This document shows positions 691 through 9,673 of a stretch of DNA of 20,580 bases, piece after piece; the stretch's first letter is position 1, and every line of letters starts with the position of its first letter. This DNA is from a virus. Lineage: Duplodnaviria > Heunggongvirae > Uroviricota > Caudoviricetes. The position numbers and the translations under genes are program-made. The stretch spans positions 1 to 20,580 of the IMG/VR virus record IMGVR_UViG_2737471827_000003. One strand, 5' to 3'. Under the pieces are notes generated by a model that was not told where the DNA came from, ran no database searches, and was given only the letters and a program-made list of their open reading frames with translations.

Positions 691-1056
691 ATGACTGAAC
701 GCATAGAATTTGTTTTGCCTTACCCGCCGACGGTGAATACTTACTGGCGACGTCGCGGCAGCACATATTTTGTATCAAAAGCCGGTGAGCGTTATCGCCG
801 AGATGTGGCGCTTATTGTTCGCCATCAGCAACTGAAATTAAACCTCTCCGGAAGGCTGGCGATAAAGATTATTGCAGAGCCACCGGATAAGCGCCGTCGT
901 GACCTGGACAATATCCTGAAAGCACCACTGGATGCGCTGACGCATGCCGGACTACTCATAGACGACGAGCAGTTTGATGAAATCAATATTGTGCGCGGTC
1001 AGCTCGTTCCTGGTGGGCGGCTGGGGATAAAAATCACAGAACTGGAGTGCGCATGA
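691..1056 (+). CDS. rusA: Crossover junction endodeoxyribonuclease RusA (Holliday junction resolvase)
   Basis: 121 aa translation MTERIEFVLPYPPTVNTYWRRRG...DLDNILKAPLDALTHAGLLIDDEQF matches the RusA family; position just upstream of Q is typical. Confidence 0.85.
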   Translation: MTERIEFVLPYPPTVNTYWRRRGSTYFVSKAGERYRRDVALIVRHQQLKLNLSGRLAIKIIAEPPDKRRRDLDNILKAPLDALTHAGLLIDDEQFDEINIVRGQLVPGGRLGIKITELECA

Positions 1057-1742
1057 ATAACCAGTATTTACAGTTTGTGCGTGAGCAGCTCATTATCGCC
1101 ACCGCTGATTTGAGTGGGGCAACAAAAGGTCAGCTTGAAGCCTGGCAGGAGAATGCCATGTTCGATACAGGGCGTTACAGGCGAAAAAAAATCCGGTACC
1201 GCGATGAAGTGACTGGAAAAATGATAACGCGGGATAATCCACCAATCCCGGGAAAACAATCACTGGCGAATGGCTCATCAATTGCCCTGGTCAGCCCGGT
1301 TGAGTTTTCGACATCATCATGGCGGCGGGCTTTGCTGTCTCTTGAAGAGCATCATAAAGCCTGGTTGTTGTGGTGTTACGGCGAGAGTATTTGTTGGGAA
1401 TATCAGATCGCGATAACACAGTGGGCGTGGAATGAATTTAATACTCAATCCGGTACCAGAAAAATTGCAGGGAAAACGCAGGAACGCCTGAAAAAATTAA
1501 TCTGGCTGGCGGCGCAGGCAGTAAAAGCAGAACTTTTTGGTGGGGAAGGTTATGAATACCAGGAGCTGGCATTACTGGCGGGAGTGACAACTAAAAACTG
1601 GTCCAAAACATTTACTCGTCACTGGGTTGCAATGAAACACATTTTTCAACGACTGGATAGTGAGGCTTTATTGTTTGTAATGAGAACACGTTCAAAACAA
1701 AAGGCGGCATTTTCAAAGCAAAGTGTTGCAAAAGTAGATTGA
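1053..1742 (+). CDS. Late-gene antiterminator, Q-like
   Basis: ORF directly downstream of rusA (overlapping its stop) and directly upstream of a sigma70-like promoter plus intrinsic terminator, the canonical Q/PR'/tR' arrangement. ATG at 1053 is preceded by GGAG at 1044-1047; the ORF track's start at 1047 is a GTG. Call is by synteny more than by recognised sequence. Confidence 0.6.
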   Translation: MNNQYLQFVREQLIIATADLSGATKGQLEAWQENAMFDTGRYRRKKIRYRDEVTGKMITRDNPPIPGKQSLANGSSIALVSPVEFSTSSWRRALLSLEEHHKAWLLWCYGESICWEYQIAITQWAWNEFNTQSGTRKIAGKTQERLKKLIWLAAQAVKAELFGGEGYEYQELALLAGVTTKNWSKTFTRHWVAMKHIFQRLDSEALLFVMRTRSKQKAAFSKQSVAKVD

Positions 1743-1754
1743 AAGGCATATATT
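1726..1754 (+). promoter_or_regulatory. Candidate late promoter PR' (-35 TTGCAA 1726-1731, 17-nt spacer, -10 TATATT 1749-1754), overlapping the Q stop codon
   Basis: Near-consensus sigma70 hexamers with 17-bp spacing, placed at the Q 3' end and about 50-80 nt upstream of an intrinsic terminator, as at lambda PR'/qut. Confidence 0.55.
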
Positions 1755-1804: not shown

Positions 1805-1832
1805 CAAAACCCGCCCACAAGCGGGTTTTTTT
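1805..1832 (+). terminator. Rho-independent terminator, tR'-like
   Basis: Stem CCCGC (1810-1814), loop CCACAA, stem GCGGG (1821-1825), then T7 (1826-1832), preceded by an A-rich tract. Confidence 0.75.
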
Positions 1833-1868
1833 GTGCCACTTATCTCGGATAGACATGGTGAATGCGCT

Positions 1869-1876
1869 GGTGGAGG
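1869..1876. repeat. Target-site duplication (left copy) GGTGGAGG of the IS66-family insertion
   Basis: The identical 8-mer occurs at 4576-4583, immediately outside the other IS terminus. Confidence 0.8.
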
Positions 1877-1906
1877 GTAAGCGACTCGTCAGAACCGTAT
1901 TGATAT

Positions 1907-3478
1907 TTACTGAGAGCTCAGATCAACTTTCCAGGGCAACAGATCGCGTACCCGGTTTGCCGGCCAGTCCTGGATATGTTCAATGACGTAACGCAGCCAC
2001 TTTTCTGGCTCCACATTGTTCAGACGGCATGTGCCGATCAGCGAGTACAACACCGCCGCATGTTCACCACCGCTGTCGGAACCCGCGAACATCCAGTTTT
2101 TCCGGCCTACGGCCACTCCCCGTAAGGCGTTCTCTGCGATGTTGTTGTCGATTTCCACCCAGCCATTACTGCAGTACACGTTCAGTGCATCCCACTGTTT
2201 CAGCAGGTATGCGAACGCTTTTGCCGTATCTGAGTGACGCGACAGTGTTTTCATCTGTTGCTGTATCCAGTCATACAGTGACTGCATCAGTGGCGCGGCT
2301 CTGGCTTTTCTTGCCGCCAGACGCTGTTCTGCTGAACAGCCCCGGACCTCTGCCTCGATGGCATACAGTTCACCGATACGCTGCAGGGCTTCCGTGGTGA
2401 TGTAGGTGGACGCTCTTGCATGCACATCGTGGATTTTTCTCCGGGCATGAGCCATACACGCGGCTTCCGTTATTCTGCCGGATTCGTATAACGCCCGGTA
2501 ACCACCGTAAGCATCGGCCTGAAGCACACCGCTGTAACCGGCCAGGTGATTTTGTGGATGGATACCTTTCCGGTCCGGACTGTACGCGAACCAGACCGCC
2601 GGGGGCATCTGTGAACCGGCGTTACGGTCATCACGGACGTAGACCCACAGCCGGGCTGTCCGGGTTTTACCGCTGCCCGGCTCCTGGACCGGGACGGGGA
2701 TATCATCAGCATGGACTTTACCGGGCATCAGCACATACTGGCGCAGGACGTCATACAGCGGCTCCAGCAGTTCAGCAACAGCACCTGTCCAGCGCCCCAG
2801 TGTGGCACGGCTCAGCTCCACTCCCTGACGACGGTATATTTCTGACTGGCGGTATAACGGCAGATGGTCTGCATATTTCCCGGTGACAACATGGGCCAGA
2901 AGCCCCGCTCCGGCATAACTGCGTGCAATGGGTTTTGAAGGTACTGGTGCCTGCACGATATGGTCGCACCGGCAACAGGCCTGTTTCGGACGTTGTGTTT
3001 CGATAACCTTAAAGGCGCTGCTGATAAGCTCCAGTTGCTCTGACACATCACATCCCAGAGAACTGAGTTCACCACCACAGGCAGGACAGCATTCCTCTTC
3101 CGGCCGGATAACCCGGGTTTCACGGGGAAGTGAGGCCGGTAACGGTTTACGGGCTGAAGACTGGCGCAGGGCGGATGGCAGTACCGGGTCATATTGCTCA
3201 CCCAGCGTTTCCGCCATTTCTTCCTGAAGTGCGCTGATTCGCTCCTGTGCTTCCTGTATCTGCCGTTCGGTTTTTGCACGAAGTTTTTCTGAGCTTTTAC
3301 CGAACTGCATACGTTGCAGTTTCGCAACCAGCGCCTTCAGCCGGTTGATTTCGGAAGCATAAGCCGCCACCCGCTGTGAGAGCAGGCGGTTGTATTCAGC
3401 CATCTGGCGGATGGTGTCCTGTTGCGTCTGCAACAGTGCCCGCAGGCGGGCGTTCTCATGAGCAAGTGAGGTGTCCAT
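1907..3478 (-). CDS. IS66-family transposase (third and largest ORF of the element)
   Basis: 523 aa with an N-terminal coiled-coil/leucine-zipper region, a CxxC...CxxC cluster, and a central/C-terminal region typical of IS66 TnpC-type transposases. Confidence 0.85.
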
Positions 3479-3497
3479 ATCCTCACTTTACAACGGG

Positions 3498-3845
3498 TTA
3501 TATGCGGATTCCAGCGCGTTCCGTTCGTTTCGGGTGCTTCCAGTTGATACCTTCAAGAAGCATGGATAACTGAGCCGGAGTAAGGTGCACCTTGCCGTCA
3601 CGGGTGACTGGCCAGACGAAGCGGCCCCGCTCCAGGCGTTTGGTGAAGAGGCACAGTCCGTCACTGTCAGCCCACAACACTTTTATCTGGTCACCCCGGC
3701 GTCCGCGGAAGATGAACAGGTGTCCGGAGAACGGGTCATCCTTCAGGACGTTCTGAACTTTTGATGCCAGGCCGTTAAAGCCATTTCGCATATCGGTGAT
3801 ACCTGCAACCAGCCAGATACGCGAACCTGCAGGGAGAGATATCAT
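3498..3845 (-). CDS. IS66-family accessory protein, Orf2/TnpB-like
   Basis: 115 aa, MISLPAGSRIWLVAGITDMRNGFNGLA...; conserved IS66 Orf2 signature; start overlaps the upstream ORF (ATGA). Confidence 0.85.
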   Translation of the reverse strand: MISLPAGSRIWLVAGITDMRNGFNGLASKVQNVLKDDPFSGHLFIFRGRRGDQIKVLWADSDGLCLFTKRLERGRFVWPVTRDGKVHLTPAQLSMLLEGINWKHPKRTERAGIRI

Positions 3846-4522
3846 CAGTGGCTGCTCCCTTTTATTTCGCGGATAAGTGTCTGTAATAACGCCGGCGTCA
3901 GTTTACCTTTAAGCCTGAGAGTTCCGGCCGGCAGAACCAGCTCACAACACAGACTGTCGGACGGTGTATTTATCTGCTCTGGTTCCTGTGCGGGGGCCGG
4001 GATTTTATTATCCGGCTCCGGCGTTAACGTCACGGGAAGCAGTGCCGGCATATTTTTTCCGGAAGGCAGCAGGCCACCTTTCCGGTATTGATGGCGCCAG
4101 TTGAAGAGCAGGTTATCGTTGATTCCGTTTTCCCGGGCGATCTGCGCCACACAGGCTCCGGGCTGCAGTGACTGCTCCACTAAGGCGATTTTAAACTCAT
4201 AAGGGAAGTTGGGCCGCCGGGGACGTTTTTTTACCACGGGGGCTTCGGATATAACGGTGCTTTCAGGACGTACGACTGGTACCGTGGAAAATTGTCCGTA
4301 AAGGCAGGCATCAAGTTCCTGCTCCGACATGCCTGCGGGCAAAGGCCACGAAAGGCCAGCTCTCCGAAAGCGCACGAACATACTACAAACTGTTGATTTT
4401 GGTACACCCAGGCGACGCCCGGCCACAACCCGGGGTAAATGTTCTTCAAAGTGAAGACGTAAAGCTTCAGTGATCCAGGTCCGGTGTTTCATACGATAGT
4501 GTCCATTAAAAATGATGGACAT
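3845..4522 (-). CDS. IS66-family accessory protein, Orf1/TnpA-like, with an N-terminal HTH-like extension (true start uncertain)
   Basis: C-terminal part ...RRPNFPYEFKIALVEQSLQPGACVAQIARENGINDNLLFNWRHQYRKG resembles IS66 Orf1. The 225-aa longest ORF is longer than typical, so an internal start is possible. Confidence 0.65.
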   Translation of the reverse strand: MSIIFNGHYRMKHRTWITEALRLHFEEHLPRVVAGRRLGVPKSTVCSMFVRFRRAGLSWPLPAGMSEQELDACLYGQFSTVPVVRPESTVISEAPVVKKRPRRPNFPYEFKIALVEQSLQPGACVAQIARENGINDNLLFNWRHQYRKGGLLPSGKNMPALLPVTLTPEPDNKIPAPAQEPEQINTPSDSLCCELVLPAGTLRLKGKLTPALLQTLIREIKGSSH

Positions 4523-4575
4523 TATTTTTGTAGAGCCGGAGGAAACAGACCAGACGGTTTAAATGAGCCGGTTAC

Positions 4576-4583
4576 GGTGGAGG
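4576..4583. repeat. Target-site duplication (right copy) GGTGGAGG
   Basis: Identical to 1869-1876. Confidence 0.8.
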
Positions 4584-4659
4584 AGCTAAGGGTGATTTTT
4601 AACCAGGTGATTTTTGAATGCTTGCAACATTGATTTCGTAACGTTATTATCCTGCGCCC

Positions 4660-4735
4660 GGCCCTTTAGCTCAGAGGTGAGAGCGAGCGACTCATAATCG
4701 CCAGGTCGCTGGTTCAAATCCAGCAAGGGCCACCA
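4660..4735 (+). tRNA. tRNA-Ile2-like (anticodon CAU, presumably lysidine-modified; formally Met by anticodon)
   Basis: Cloverleaf folded by hand: acceptor GGCCCTT/AAGGGCC, anticodon loop CTCATAA, T-loop TTCAAAT, encoded CCA. Overall strongly resembles E. coli ileX-type tRNA (recalled from memory). Confidence 0.75.
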
Positions 4736-4736
4736 A

Positions 4737-4813
4737 CCGCCACTAGCTCATCAGGAAAGAGCGTCAACCCTTTAAGTTGAGTGTGCGAGGTTCGAGTCCC
4801 CGGTGGCGGTCCA
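4737..4813 (+). tRNA. tRNA, isotype uncertain (anticodon loop CCUUUAA; nominal anticodon UUU, but C at position 33 is atypical)
   Basis: Acceptor CCGCCAC/GTGGCGG, D-stem GCTC/GAGC, anticodon stem TCAAC/GTTGA, T-loop TTCGAGT, encoded CCA; 77 nt. One A:C mismatch in the T-stem. Confidence 0.6.
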
Positions 4814-4815
4814 GT

Positions 4816-4891
<76 letters not shown>

Positions 4892-4894
4892 TAT

Positions 4895-4969
<75 letters not shown>

Positions 4970-5100: not shown

Positions 5101-5176
5101 GCACTCTGCTTTTATTCCGATTAACTGTGGGTGGTTTGTTGGATAGAGTGCTTCCCTTTCTGTATATATCGTTTCG

Positions 5177-5200
5177 CCCGCTTTTGCGGGTTTTTCTTTT
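5177..5200 (+). terminator. Rho-independent terminator-like hairpin upstream of the holin gene
   Basis: Stem CCCGC, loop TTTT, stem GCGGG, followed by TTTTTCTTTT. Confidence 0.6.
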
Positions 5201-5260: not shown

Positions 5261-5476
5261 ATGAAATCCATGGACAAAATTTCAACGGGCATTGCCTATG
5301 GCACCTCCGCAGGCAGTGCTGGCTACTGGTTTTTACAGTGGCTTGATCAGGTCAGTCCGTCACAGTGGGCTGCGATTGGTGTGCTGGGGAGTCTGGTTCT
5401 GGGCTTCCTGACTTATCTGACAAATCTGTACTTCAAAATCAGAGAAGACAAGCGTAAGGCTGCACGGGGAGAGTAA
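5261..5476 (+). CDS. S: Class II holin (pinholin), phage 21 S-like, with dual-start motif M1-K-S-M4
   Basis: 71 aa [30 protein letters not shown]...[35 protein letters not shown], close to the phage 21 S holin as recalled; two transmembrane segments; preceded by GGAGG. Confidence 0.9.
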
Positions 5477-5480
5477 TTCA

Positions 5481-5832
5481 ATGACTCAAAACTATGAACT
5501 GATTGTGAAAGGGATCCGCAATTTTGAGAATAAAGTTACGGTAACTTTAGCGTTACGGGACAAAAAAACGCTTTGACGGTGAAATTTTTGACCTGGACAT
5601 CTCGCTGGACCGTGTTGAAGGTGCCGCGCTGGAGTTTTATGAGGCAGCAGCCAGAAGGAGCATCAGACAGGTCTTCCTGGATGTTGCTGCCGGGTTATGT
5701 GAAGGGGATGAGCAGTCGCCGGAAAAGCGCCCCGTAATTTTAGATGCGCAGAATGTGTGGATAACCTACAAAGGAAAGCTACCAGGAAGAATTACTGGTT
5801 CTCTGAAGACTCCTCCGGAATCACAACCTTAA
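5481..5832 (+). pseudogene. Hypothetical lysis-cassette ORF interrupted by a frameshift in an A7 tract (5562-5568); the two halves together would give about 116 aa
   Basis: Frame 0: ATG 5481 ... MTQNYELIVKGIRNFENKVTVTLALRDKKTL, stop TGA at 5574-5576. The frame offset by one continues without a usable start codon: DGEIFDLDISLDRVEGAALEFYEAAARRSIRQVFLDVAAGLCEGDEQSPEKRPVILDAQNVWITYKGKLPGRITGSLKTPPESQP, stop TAA at 5830-5832. Both pieces fall below the ORF-track threshold. Confidence 0.6.
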
Positions 5833-5895
5833 GTCACTGACCGGAACAGATAAACCTGTCCGTGGGCAGAAACCGATAAATCCTGATAAATATCC

Positions 5896-6429: not shown

Positions 6430-6893
6430 GCAGAGTCGCCGCGATTATTTATGCTCTGGTTATCTGCATCATCGTCTGCCTGTCGTGGGCGGTCAATCAT
6501 TACCGTGATAACGCCATCGCCTACAAAGAACAGCGTGATAAAAAAGTCAGTGAGCTGAAGCTGGCGATCGCCACCATCGCTGACATGCAGCAGCGTCAGC
6601 GTGATGTTGCTGCGCTCGATGCAAAGTACTCGAGAGAATTAGCCAATGCGCAAGCTGAAAATGAAACTCTGCGCGCTGATGTTGCCGCTGGCCGTAAGCG
6701 CCTGCGGGTCAATGCCAGTTGCTCCGCAGCCGTGCGTGAAGCCACCGGACCCACCAGCGTGGATAATGCAACCATCCCCCGACTGGCAGACACCGCTGAA
6801 CGGGATTATTTCACCCTCAGAGACCGATTGATGACGATGCAGATGCAACTGGAAGGGGCGCAGGAATATATCCGCACTCAGTGCATTAAGTAG
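6426..6893 (+). CDS. Rz: Spanin inner-membrane subunit Rz (i-spanin)
   Basis: Translation from GTG 6426, (M)[37 protein letters not shown]..., is near-identical in pattern to lambda Rz; overlaps the endolysin stop. Confidence 0.85.
6646..6831 (+). CDS. Rz1: Spanin outer-membrane lipoprotein Rz1 (o-spanin), nested inside Rz in another frame
   Basis: 61 aa [61 protein letters not shown]; lipobox-like LAVSAC and proline-rich, lambda Rz1-like. Confidence 0.85.
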
Positions 6894-6935
6894 CCTTTTT
6901 ATCGTGGTAAACATTTCGCAGGGTATGAGGTATTT

Positions 6936-7286
6936 ATGCCATCACGAATCCCACGCGCCTGCCGTAAGCGTGGATGTGCAGGTACAACCACAGACAGTTC
7001 TGGTTACTGCGATAAACATCGTGGCGAAGGATGGGTACAGCATCAACGCGGACTGAGCCGCCACCAGCGTGGCTATGGCTCGAAATGGGATGCCATACGT
7101 GCGCGCATACTGAAGCGTGATAATCATCTGTGTCAGAACTGCCTGCGCAATGGGAGAGTCGTTGAAGCCAGAACTGTGGACCACATCATTCCGAAAGCTC
7201 ATGGTGGCACGGATGCAGACAGTAACCTGCAGAGTCTGTGCTGGCCCTGTCATAAAGCAAAAACAGCGCGCGAACGCATCAATTGA
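6936..7286 (+). CDS. HNH endonuclease, phage packaging-associated
   Basis: 116 aa with CxxC...C...H, DHIIPKAHGG...N...LCWPCH (HNH motif); immediately upstream of the terminase genes. Confidence 0.85.
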   Translation: MPSRIPRACRKRGCAGTTTDSSGYCDKHRGEGWVQHQRGLSRHQRGYGSKWDAIRARILKRDNHLCQNCLRNGRVVEARTVDHIIPKAHGGTDADSNLQSLCWPCHKAKTARERIN

Positions 7287-7433: not shown

Positions 7434-7916
7434 ATGTCTGGACCCCCGAAAACCCCGCCACGCCTGCATTTGATACGAGGCAACCCCTCAAAGCGCCCCG
7501 TTAAAGACTCAAAAAAAACCGCTAAAAAGGATGAAAAAGGTCTCCCTAAAATTCCGCAACATTTAGGGGCGCAGGGGAAGTACTGGTTCAGGCGAATGGC
7601 AGAAGAACTGAATGCGGAAGGGATCATTTCTCAGCTTGATGCGCGTGCACTCGAGTTACTGGTGGAAGCCTACACCGAATACCGGCATCACTGCGAAACC
7701 CTCGATGTTGAGGGATATACCTACCGCACGGAAACGCAGAACGGTGATGTGCTGATTAAGGCACACCCCGCGGCGGCAATGAAAGCGGATGCCTGGAAGA
7801 GGATCCGGGCGATGCTTGCAGAGTTTGGCATGTCACCGGCAAGCCGGGCTAAAGTAAATATCGCCGGACCGGATGATGTCGATCCGCTGGCGGAGCTTTT
7901 AAAAGCGAGAGACTGA
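7434..7916 (+). CDS. Terminase small subunit (P27-family-like)
   Basis: 160 aa with a basic N-terminus, directly upstream of and overlapping the large terminase. Confidence 0.8.
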   Translation: MSGPPKTPPRLHLIRGNPSKRPVKDSKKTAKKDEKGLPKIPQHLGAQGKYWFRRMAEELNAEGIISQLDARALELLVEAYTEYRHHCETLDVEGYTYRTETQNGDVLIKAHPAAAMKADAWKRIRAMLAEFGMSPASRAKVNIAGPDDVDPLAELLKARD

Positions 7917-9673
7917 TGGCAAAAGTGGCTGACGGGATCCGCTACGCCGAACGTGTTGTTGCAGGAGAAATTGTTGCTGGCGAATTTGTCCGTCTGGCCT
8001 GCCAGCGTTTTCTTGATGATCTGAAGTACGGCGAGAAGCGGGGGATTTATTTCAGTGAACCCCGTGCGCAGCACATCCTGAATTTCTACAAATTTGTGCC
8101 CCATGTGAAAGGGGCGCTGGCAGGCCAGCCCATTGAACTGATGGACTGGCATGTATTTATCCTCATTAATATTTTTGGTTTTGTCATTCCGCTGGTGAAT
8201 GAAGAGACCGGGGAAGTTGTCATGCGCAGCGATGGCAGCGGACGCCCGGTGATGGTGCGCCGGTTCCGGACGGCGTACAACGAAGTCGCCCGTAAAAACG
8301 CAAAATCAACCCTGTCATCGGGTATCGGTCTGTATATGACGGGGGCAGATGGTGAAGGTGGTGCTGAGGTGTATTCAGCCGCAACCACGCGTGATCAGGC
8401 CAGAATCGTGTTTGAAGACGCCAAAAATATGGTCAGAAAAGCCCGGTCGACACTCGGGCGGTTGTTTGACTTCAACAAGTTGGCGATTTACCAGGAGCAG
8501 AGCGCATCAAAATTTGAACCGCTTTCCTCGGATGCAAACAACCTGGACGGTCTGAACATCCACTGTGCCATTATTGATGAGCTGCATGCACATAAAACCC
8601 GCGACGTGTGGGACGTTCTGGAGACGGCAACCGGTGCCCGTCTGCAGTCTCTGTTATTTGGCATCACCACGGCTGGCTTTAACAAGGAAGGGATTTGTTA
8701 CGAGCAGCGTGATTACGCCATCAAGGTATTGCGAGGCTATAACAGCGACGTGGAGGGCGCGGTAAAAGACGACTCCTACTTTGCGATCATTTACACGCTC
8801 GATGAGGGAGATGATCCGTTTGATGAAACGGTCTGGCAGAAAGCGAATCCTGGCCTGGGCATCTGTAAACGCTGGGATGATCTGCGTCGTCTGGCGAAAA
8901 AAGCGAAGGAGCAGGTCTCTGCGCGGGTAAATTTTTTTACCAAACACATGAATGTGTGGGTCACTGCCGAATCTGCCTGGATGGATATGATTAAGTGGGA
9001 GAAGTGCGAATACATTGCTCCACAACATGAGCTGAAAACATATCCCATGTGGGTCGGCGTCGACCTTGCTCATAAGATTGATATCTGTGCGGCGGCAAAA
9101 CTCTGGCGAACCGATAACGGACATGTTCATGCTGATTTTAAATTCTGGCTTCCGGAAGGACGGCTGGAACGATGCTCGCGGCAGCAGGCAGAACTTTACC
9201 GGAAGTGGGCGGAGATGGATAAGCTCATCCTGACGGATGGTGATGTTATCGATCATGCTCAGATAAAAAGTGACTTACTGGAATGGATTGGCGGTGAAAA
9301 CCTCAGGGAACTGGGATTTGACCCGTGGAGCGCAATGCAGTTCAGCCTGGCACTGGCTGAAGAAGGGATACCGCTGGTGGAGGTTCCGCAGACGGTCCGC
9401 AATCTGTCAGAGGCCATGAAGGAAACGGAATCACTGGTTTATGCCGGGCGTTTCCATCACAGCAATCATCCGGTCATGAACTGGATGATGTCTAACGTTA
9501 CTGTAAAACCGGACAAAAACGACAACATCTTCCCGAATAAATCCACGCCTGAAGCCAAAATCGACGGCCCTGTTGCACTTTTTACGGCCATGAGCCGCTT
9601 TCTGGTAAATGGCGGGGACGTGAATGACTTTCTGTCCACGCTTGATCCTGATGAGGACCTGTTAATTCTGTGA
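7916..9673 (+). CDS. Terminase large subunit
   Basis: 585 aa, with an N-terminal ATPase region and a C-terminal nuclease region; position between small terminase and portal. Confidence 0.85.
   Translation: MAKVADGIRYAERVVAGEIVAGEFVRLACQRFLDDLKYGEKRGIYFSEPRAQHILNFYKFVPHVKGALAGQPIELMDWHVFILINIFGFVIPLVNEETGEVVMRSDGSGRPVMVRRFRTAYNEVARKNAKSTLSSGIGLYMTGADGEGGAEVYSAATTRDQARIVFEDAKNMVRKARSTLGRLFDFNKLAIYQEQSASKFEPLSSDANNLDGLNIHCAIIDELHAHKTRDVWDVLETATGARLQSLLFGITTAGFNKEGICYEQRDYAIKVLRGYNSDVEGAVKDDSYFAIIYTLDEGDDPFDETVWQKANPGLGICKRWDDLRRLAKKAKEQVSARVNFFTKHMNVWVTAESAWMDMIKWEKCEYIAPQHELKTYPMWVGVDLAHKIDICAAAKLWRTDNGHVHADFKFWLPEGRLERCSRQQAELYRKWAEMDKLILTDGDVIDHAQIKSDLLEWIGGENLRELGFDPWSAMQFSLALAEEGIPLVEVPQTVRNLSEAMKETESLVYAGRFHHSNHPVMNWMMSNVTVKPDKNDNIFPNKSTPEAKIDGPVALFTAMSRFLVNGGDVNDFLSTLDPDEDLLIL

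Follow-up and report, generated by a model that had tools for sequence, protein, structure and literature searches.

ISCro1 was first catalogued in Citrobacter rodentium ICC168 and is widespread on the plasmids and chromosomes of E. coli, Shigella and Salmonella. Members of the IS66 family reportedly have imperfect terminal repeats of ~20 to 30 nt that begin with GTAA, and the prototypes IS679 and IS66 are said to combine terminal repeats of ~25 nt, also beginning GTAA, with an 8-bp target duplication. The family is defined by three ORFs, of which tnpC encodes the transposase (PMC6778807), published ISCro1 is 2,699 bp long with an 8-bp duplication (PMC12115866), and IS679 and ISCro1 are listed separately among the elements of C. 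rodentium (PMC3072379). Q proteins, as set out in the review PMC12360218, render RNA polymerase resistant to pausing and termination, and the same review cites Yang and Roberts (1989) for suppression by Q82 of pausing at a Rho-dependent terminator. The element described here and its family are already well documented, and so are the way in which it inserts and the occurrence of IS elements within lambdoid prophages.

The window, the whole stretch of 20,580 nt that was analysed (IMG/VR record IMGVR_UViG_2737471827_000003), contains part of a lambdoid prophage with HK97-type head genes and a phage-82-type Q. Positions 1877-4575 are occupied by a complete, 2,699-bp IS66-family element with its genes on the minus strand, in agreement with the sequence-only reading, which had called an element of ~2.7 kb with all three ORFs, imperfect terminal repeats and a perfect 8-bp duplication. 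Over its full length (1-2699), the element has 100% identity to many chromosomal and plasmid copies in E. coli, and the transposase of these identical copies is named "IS66-like element ISCro1 family" in RefSeq. The element is presumably ISCro1, a name taken from RefSeq naming and one paper (PMC12115866). Copies that cover at least 80% of the element length are present in 1,493 of 5,426 complete E. coli genomes, and many of these genomes have multiple copies, at up to 34 places per genome. Four of the copies are base-for-base identical to the element in the window, and WP_021572172.1, WP_000624622.1 and WP_001339397.1 are therefore the proteins that it encodes.

The layout is that of the IS66 family, with tnpA and tnpB upstream of tnpC in one orientation. 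The first gene, tnpA (3845-4522, minus strand), encodes a 225-aa accessory HTH protein (PF01527; NF038385, 296 bits with a cut-off of 150), and its stop codon overlaps the start of tnpB in the sequence ATGA. A 115-aa accessory protein is encoded by tnpB (3498-3845, minus strand; PF05717, 136 bits; NF033819, 129 bits), the stop codon of which is separated by 19 nt from the ATG of tnpC (1907-3478, minus strand). The 523-aa DDE transposase encoded by tnpC matches 283 of the 284 profile positions of PF03050 (344 bits, E = 8.7e-103) and scores 478 bits against NF033517 (cut-off 180); it also has the Pfam domains zf-IS66, LZ_Tnp_IS66 and IS66_C, and a CMAHARRK motif at residue 341. All three proteins score above the curated Pfam and NCBIfam equivalog cut-offs for IS66 proteins. 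No sequence relatives of TnpC were found in the PDB.

The terminal inverted repeats are located at 1877-1902, at the tnpC end (GTAAGCGACTCGTCAGAACCGTATTG), and at 4550-4575, at the tnpA end (GTAACCGGCTCATTTAAACCGTCTGG as the reverse complement). Both are 26 nt long, start from GTAA (GTAAGCGACTC... versus GTAACCGGCTC...) and are identical at 18 of 26 positions, a match expected by chance with P = 2.6e-6. The boundaries of the element were confirmed independently of the duplication, as six copies on other replicons have the same first and last bases, with GTAAGCGACTCG at the start and TGAGCCGGTTAC at the end. Immediately outside these ends, GGTGGAGG is present at 1869-1876 and again at 4576-4583, a perfect (8/8) target site duplication which, with the element ends fixed, has a probability of 1.5e-5 by chance. 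Each of the six other ISCro1 copies also has its own, different, perfect 8-bp duplication, and comparison of all seven (GGTGGAGG, TTTTCTTT, GATTAATT, TGCTGTGT, CGCTCGTG, AGATATTA and CGAGTCCT) revealed no evident consensus. With identical copies present at many sites flanked by different duplications, and an empty site also found, the copy in the window is presumably transposition-competent. A Chi sequence (GCTGGTGG; 1866-1873, plus strand) overlaps the left copy of the duplication and is intact after the insertion. There are four occurrences of GGTGGAGG in the window, with 0.68 expected; this excess was rejected as a separate signal, being due in part to the duplication itself and in part to overlap with the over-represented Chi sequence.

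The empty site predicted from the window, ...GCGCTGGTGGAGG|AGCTAAGG... with a single 8-mer, exists in 11 related prophage loci and in one isolated phage, so that the comparison with related prophages proposed in the sequence-only reading gave the predicted result. The longer sequence ...GCTGGTGGAGG|AGCTAAGG... is present verbatim, with one 8-mer, in the 11 prophage loci, and the same site is uninterrupted in phage vB_EcoM-606R7, which also has a single 8-mer, followed on the right side by AGATAAGG. A search for loci encoding exactly the same Q protein returned 10, all 10 with the empty site, and uninterrupted flanks are present in 252 complete E. coli genomes.

The insertion is private to this genome within the scope of the collections searched. 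The 5,426 complete E. coli genomes include none with an insertion at this position, and exact junction 33-mers had no match in the GTDB representative genomes (for either junction), IMG/VR or the JGI metagenomes. Three genomes aligned with 100% coverage to a 600-bp query spanning the left junction and were considered as candidates for the same insertion, but were rejected: in each record the aligned pieces, two in number, extend over 1,201 bp, which places the IS at a different site, after the tRNAs. The 100% identity of the element with other copies, taken with the lack of this junction in the searched collections, points to an insertion that is probably recent, as had also been proposed. Searches with the junction 33-mer and with the 16-kb right flank identified no isogenic empty-site relative, and the closest complete E. 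coli genomes reach no more than ~96% identity over these 16 kb. A junction that is found nowhere else, formed by an element that is present at up to 34 places in some genomes, raises the concern that a repeat was misplaced during genome assembly, as multi-copy repeats often cause misassembly. A misjoin would not, however, yield a perfect 8-bp duplication that falls exactly against the true element boundary on each side, and the 8-mer that is duplicated is single-copy at the empty site, with the chance of such a match being 1.5e-5. We consider an assembly artefact extremely improbable.

The region that received the element has the organization of a lambdoid late leader, as the sequence-only reading had concluded. 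The Q antiterminator gene (1053-1742, plus strand; PF06323, 306 bits) encodes a 229-aa protein of the phage 82 type that is 76.9% identical over 229 aa to the phage 82 Q (X92588) and, at full length, 73.8% identical to the Q of phage 434, annotated as 'Q82-like' in the phage 434 record. No PDB sequence relatives of Q were found. Overlapping the Q stop codon, a consensus scan identified a PR'-like sequence, TTGCAA-17 nt-TATATT (1726-1754, plus strand), the hexamers of which, together with the ~25 nt that follow, are conserved with phage 434; it is a candidate late promoter. An intrinsic, tR'-like terminator, consisting of a GC-rich hairpin and a T7 run, is located at 1806-1832 (plus strand), within a region (1760-1840) that has a predicted fold of -24.3 kcal/mol (z = -3.05). 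Downstream of Q, the conservation with phage 434 extends to the initial transcribed region and the terminator, and the phage 434 record annotates a terminator there. The 1806-1832 sequence is also scored as a terminator when read on the minus strand.

Only 44 nt separate the end of this terminator (1832) from the element, close to the ~45 bp estimated previously, and 76 nt lie between the insertion and the tRNA cluster. The target was a non-coding spacer of 120 nt that runs from the tR'-like terminator to the tRNAs. The cluster (4660-4969, plus strand) comprises four tRNA genes, CAT, Lys-TTT, Thr-TGT and Gly-TCC; the CAT tRNA is assigned to Met by ARAGORN and to Ile in the RefSeq annotation of relatives. 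These are followed by a second intrinsic terminator of the late leader (5176-5200, plus strand; -11.5 kcal/mol, z = -3.4), upstream of a holin gene of the phage 21 S type (5261-5476, plus strand; PF04971, 121 bits) that is the first late protein gene. Genes for the holin, lysozyme, Rz, terminase, head and tail follow the leader on the same strand, and tnpA, tnpB and tnpC on the minus strand are antisense to the late operon, as reported in the sequence-only reading. Full-length genes with Pfam hits encode Rz, HNH, both terminase subunits, portal, protease, capsid, tail tube, tape measure and tail L.

Taken together, we are highly confident in a recent transposition of ISCro1 into a lambdoid late leader, with read-through of the element as the most likely outcome and DNA packaging as the more likely cost. 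ISCro1 (tnpA, tnpB and tnpC) transposed into the leader spacer and duplicated the 8-bp target. Neither Q nor the late promoter is altered by the insertion, and the same holds for the terminator and the short terminated leader RNA. The late transcript now has a further 2,707 nt of antisense IS sequence in its path, a figure that includes the second 8-mer. RNA polymerase modified by Q at a promoter-proximal pause would resist both intrinsic and Rho-dependent termination and would read through the element, so that late expression would be preserved or only mildly reduced. In an uninduced lysogen, the upstream terminator would shield the IS from read-in transcription, and the same hairpin on the other strand could stop transposase transcripts before they enter Q in the antisense direction.

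The earlier proposal that the late transcript must now cross the whole element to reach the downstream genes needs a qualification for the tRNAs. A second promoter-like site, TTGCAA-17 nt-TATTAT, identified by consensus scan only, is located at 4622-4650 (plus strand), just upstream of the tRNA cluster, and the tRNAs may not depend solely on the late promoter. This site is part of the native flank, not of the IS end. At the scan threshold, no outward or hybrid promoter was detected at the end of the IS that faces the tRNAs.

Polarity is a classic effect of IS insertions in ordinary operons. In the window, convergent transcription of the transposase genes, cryptic terminators or 2.7 kb of antisense IS RNA that is not translated could stop or greatly reduce the late transcript, locking the prophage in the chromosome with no lysis and no particles. 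Convergent transcription from the IS genes could reduce the yield of late transcript, and ISCro1 itself lowered transcription of the neighbouring afaA operon by 2.5 log2 units in ST131 (PMC8764528). The insertion in that case is in a promoter-regulatory region, without antitermination. The element in the window, in contrast, would be entered only by polymerase that Q had already modified to pass the 1806-1832 terminator, and for such complexes PMC12360218 describes resistance to both intrinsic and Rho-dependent terminators as well as suppression of polarity. The only terminator-like hairpin within the IS on the strand of the late transcript (3978-4001, plus strand) is weak, and with z = -0.76 is no better than shuffled sequence. 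A frameshift in ydfR, just downstream, in an A7 run at 5562-5568, would be in keeping with relaxed selection across the late region, but the late genes seen in the window are otherwise intact, and a related prophage has retained ISCro1 in the same leader in three separately isolated strains. We consider a strongly polar insertion unlikely, although to be taken seriously.

As Q-modified polymerase suppresses both termination and polarity, read-through of the element is the most likely outcome, with late transcription most likely preserved or only mildly reduced; a strong block appears less likely, based on the established knowledge of Q antitermination. Whether the prophage can still express its late genes had been presented as an open functional question and, with Q antitermination making a strong block less likely, this appears less open than was stated. 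The ydfR frameshift would fit a prophage that is already decaying, in which case the question would be moot. For the phage, the more likely cost would be the additional 2.7 kb of DNA to be packaged into an HK97-type head, which may strain packaging. Related phages are 36.7-45.8 kb in length.

A second ISCro1 insertion provides the closest comparison for the site. In the related prophage of the avian E. coli strains DE17, IMT5155 and VTB96815v, the same element, with one base different, is also antisense to the late operon, in the same Q-tRNA-holin leader and directly after an intrinsic terminator. The target there, TTTTCTTT, is however the T-tract of the second terminator (equivalent to 5192-5199 of the window), so that this insertion is downstream of the tRNAs whereas that in the window is upstream, and the two are independent events. 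DE17 was isolated from a duck, IMT5155 and VTB96815v are from chickens, and the three strains probably share one event.

Two independent insertions in the late leader of one prophage family, both antisense and both adjacent to a terminator, might suggest that the element is kept for a benefit to the host or phage, as a brake on late expression and lysis or by providing, at its end, a new promoter for the tRNAs and late genes. Two events are, however, too few for statistics. The three avian strains probably represent one event, and no promoter-like site at the IS end is directed at the tRNAs. The seven target duplications have no common motif, and the interval from Q to holin is non-coding and accepts other inserts, with a pmrD-like gene present in three of the loci examined, so that tolerance of insertions is a sufficient explanation. 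Retention for such a benefit is very unlikely. The more specific idea that ISCro1 favours terminator-shielded, antisense sites in the late leaders of phage-82-type prophages, where it might act as a removable brake on late gene expression, is speculative and similarly improbable, if marginally less so; if true, ISCro1 would help the host to keep an otherwise intact prophage silent.

As a recent transposition with probable read-through, the finding is an ordinary one, a known element and a known mechanism at a mildly interesting location, with little import beyond the strain. The locus could nevertheless be used as a natural experiment on the reach of Q82-type antitermination, with polymerase having to traverse 2.7 kb of foreign DNA that is transcribed convergently, and on the limit for packaging of extra DNA by an HK97-type cos phage. 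For annotation, as no gene or known signal is interrupted, the late region should not be designated defective merely because it contains an IS.

In comparison with known systems, the element has the 2,699-bp length, 8-bp duplication (PMC12115866) and three-gene layout of ISCro1 and does not differ from the copies named as such in RefSeq; only the insertion site is new. With the family prototypes IS679 and IS66 it shares tnpA, tnpB and tnpC in one orientation and tnpC as the transposase gene (PMC6778807), but differs at the sequence level. IS elements within the Q-dependent late unit of a lambdoid prophage are also known from Shiga-toxin prophages. Transposases are often located near stx, upstream or downstream (PMC8136144), and IS1203v/IS629 has been documented within stx2 (Kusumoto et al. 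2000, as cited in PMC8136144); IS elements are not mentioned in PMC6266700, which deals with Stx-phage late promoters. The Stx cases interrupt a coding gene and involve IS3-family elements, whereas in the window an IS66-family element occupies a non-coding target and disrupts no gene.

Between two copies of the 8-mer GGTGGAGG (1869-1876 and 4576-4583) lies a 2,699 bp element (1877-4575) that opens with GTAAGCGACTCG and closes with TGAGCCGGTTAC. A sequence-only reading of this DNA had described an IS66-type element of ~2.7 kb with three ORFs, imperfect terminal repeats and a perfect 8-bp duplication, and all of this is borne out. Read inward, the termini are identical at 18 of 26 positions (chance P = 2.6e-6), and the minus strand encodes tnpA (3845-4522, 225 aa), tnpB (3498-3845, 115 aa) and tnpC (1907-3478, 523 aa), with the tnpB start and tnpA stop overlapping as ATGA and 19 nt separating the tnpB stop from the tnpC ATG. 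In TnpC, the IS66 transposase domain is matched at 283 of its 284 profile positions (E = 8.7e-103), and zinc-finger, leucine-zipper and C-terminal domains of the IS66 type are present as well. TnpB hits the IS66 Orf2 family and TnpA a transposase HTH domain, and each of the three proteins scores above the curated cut-off of its NCBIfam equivalog model (transpos_IS66, IS66_TnpB or IS66_access_TnpA). All testable defining features of the IS66 family are present: an IS66-type transposase, three genes arranged with the ATGA overlap, the 8-bp duplication and imperfect terminal repeats opening with GTAA. Transposition itself is documented only indirectly.

In E. coli, all 2,699 bp recur at 100% identity and 100% coverage in numerous chromosomes and plasmids, and they do so in Salmonella plasmids too; copies spanning at least 80% of the element occur in 1,493 of the 5,426 complete E. 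coli genomes. RefSeq labels the transposase of the identical copies "IS66-like element ISCro1 family". A published ISCro1 has 2,699 bp and an 8-bp duplication (PMC12115866), equal in both respects to the element here, and the name ISCro1 is taken from RefSeq and this paper. Six further copies from unrelated sites were compared; four are the same as the window element base for base and two differ at one position. All six begin and end at exactly the same bases, and each has its own perfect 8-bp duplication (TTTTCTTT, GATTAATT, TGCTGTGT, CGCTCGTG, AGATATTA and CGAGTCCT). The boundaries of the element can thus be set without reference to the window's own duplication, and with the ends so fixed the 8/8 flank match has a chance P of 1.5e-5.

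The empty site that had been predicted, ...GAATGCGCTGGTGGAGG|AGCTAAGGGTG..., is present exactly, with a single 8-mer, in a related prophage locus (L001) and in each of the ten loci with an identical Q protein. When the window flanks were joined through one 8-mer copy, the resulting sequence was uninterrupted in 252 complete E. coli genomes, with a best identity of 99.9%, and was matched full length by two isolated phages. Phage vB_EcoM-606R7 also has the site uninterrupted, with one substitution immediately to its right. ISCro1 occupies this position in none of the complete E. coli genomes, the junction 33-mers were not found in GTDB contigs (one genome per species), IMG/VR or JGI metagenomes, and the remaining prophage sequence is at most about 96% identical to any complete E. 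coli genome over 16 kb. Identity to other copies, the perfect duplication and absence from the searched collections point to a recent, private insertion, consistent with the recent origin first proposed.

Upstream of the element are a DUF968 gene, rusA and Q. The Q protein shares 76.9% identity with the antiterminator Q of phage 82 and 73.8% with Q of phage 434, annotated "Q82-like" in the phage 434 record. A promoter-like site (TTGCAA-17-TATATT, 1726-1754) overlaps the Q stop codon and precedes a terminator, a GC-rich hairpin followed by a T7 run (1806-1832; fold of 1760-1840, -24.3 kcal/mol, z = -3.05). In phage 434 the promoter hexamers, the initial ~25 transcribed bases and the terminator are conserved, and its record has a terminator annotated at the equivalent place. 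The element starts 44 nt after the T run, close to the ~45 bp originally estimated, and 76 nt separate the right-hand duplication from a tRNA cluster (CAT, Lys, Thr, Gly), followed by a second terminator (5176-5200) and a phage-21-type holin gene starting at 5261. Full-length genes are present for lysozyme, Rz, HNH, the small and large terminase subunits, portal, S78 protease, HK97-type capsid, tail tube, tape measure and tail L. The element thus lies in non-coding late-leader DNA, its three ORFs antisense to the late operon as already noted, and leaves every gene and recognisable signal uninterrupted.

A second promoter-like site (TTGCAA-17-TATTAT, 4622-4650), resembling the late promoter in -35 hexamer and spacing, is positioned 10 nt before the first tRNA gene, and so transcription of the tRNA cluster may be independent of Q. 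This first tRNA (4660-4735, anticodon CAT) is designated Met by ARAGORN and tRNA-Ile by RefSeq in relatives; the latter would imply a lysidine-modified CAT. Between the holin and lysozyme genes, ydfR/DUF1327 (5481-5835) is frameshifted by an additional A (A7 at 5562-5568, A6 in the related loci L003 and L010), which may reflect either a genuine mutation or a sequencing error in the homopolymer. An 88-aa ORF and a yfbU-like gene, found between Rz and HNH in most relatives (L003, 9289-10100), are absent from the prophage in the window (at 6893-6936) as from L010, a case of ordinary mosaicism. A Chi sequence, GCTGGTGG (1866-1873), overlaps the left duplication copy and is intact after the insertion; the right copy, preceded by IS sequence, has ceased to be one. 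Chi sequences number 8 in the window, versus 0.86 expected from shuffles.

In E. coli DE17 (L002, 4902-7600), and also in IMT5155 and VTB96815v, a closely related prophage has a second, independent ISCro1 insertion in its late leader. Like that in the window, it is antisense to the late genes; it lies between tRNA-Gly and the holin gene, and its duplication, TTTTCTTT, coincides with the T-tract of the second terminator in the leader (window equivalent of the target, 5192-5199). Both insertions are thus directly after an intrinsic terminator. Three related prophages with a Q protein identical to that in the window (L006, L009 and L012) have, at 7442-8384 in the Q-holin interval, a pmrD-like gene on the opposite strand and a small ORF. 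This leader accepts other kinds of foreign DNA as well. IS elements are commonplace in lambdoid prophages, including near Stx-phage late genes (PMC8136144).

The short terminated leader RNA is left untouched by the IS. In a lysogen, the terminator at 1806-1832 would shield the element from read-in, and on the other strand the same hairpin also resembles a terminator, one that transposase transcripts would meet on exiting the IS in the direction of Q. A cost in genome size was not raised in the earlier reading: related phage genomes are 36.7-45.8 kb, and the added 2.7 kb may bring a cos phage with an HK97-type head near its packaging limit.

That reading was correct in both observation and interpretation; the feature is a known element with known behaviour, and its location alone is mildly notable. 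It had also asked whether the late genes are still expressed. Polymerase would arrive at the IS only after passing the terminator at 1806-1832, which would need prior modification by Q at the promoter-proximal pause. According to a review (PMC12360218), complexes modified by Q withstand pausing as well as intrinsic and Rho-dependent termination, Q-lambda has been described as a proven polarity suppressor, and Q82 suppresses pausing at a Rho-dependent terminator. On the late-transcript strand, the IS has a single, weak terminator-like hairpin (3978-4001), with a fold no more stable than that of shuffled sequence. Given the resistance of Q-modified polymerase to termination and the weakness of this hairpin, read-through of the IS is the somewhat favored expectation, with late expression preserved or mildly reduced. 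The main alternative, a strong block of the late transcript, seems unlikely; an ISCro1 insertion has lowered transcription of a neighbouring operon (PMC8764528), but in a promoter-regulatory region without antitermination, and that effect is therefore not directly transferable to this locus. By its location, the locus constitutes a natural test of Q82-type antitermination across foreign DNA.
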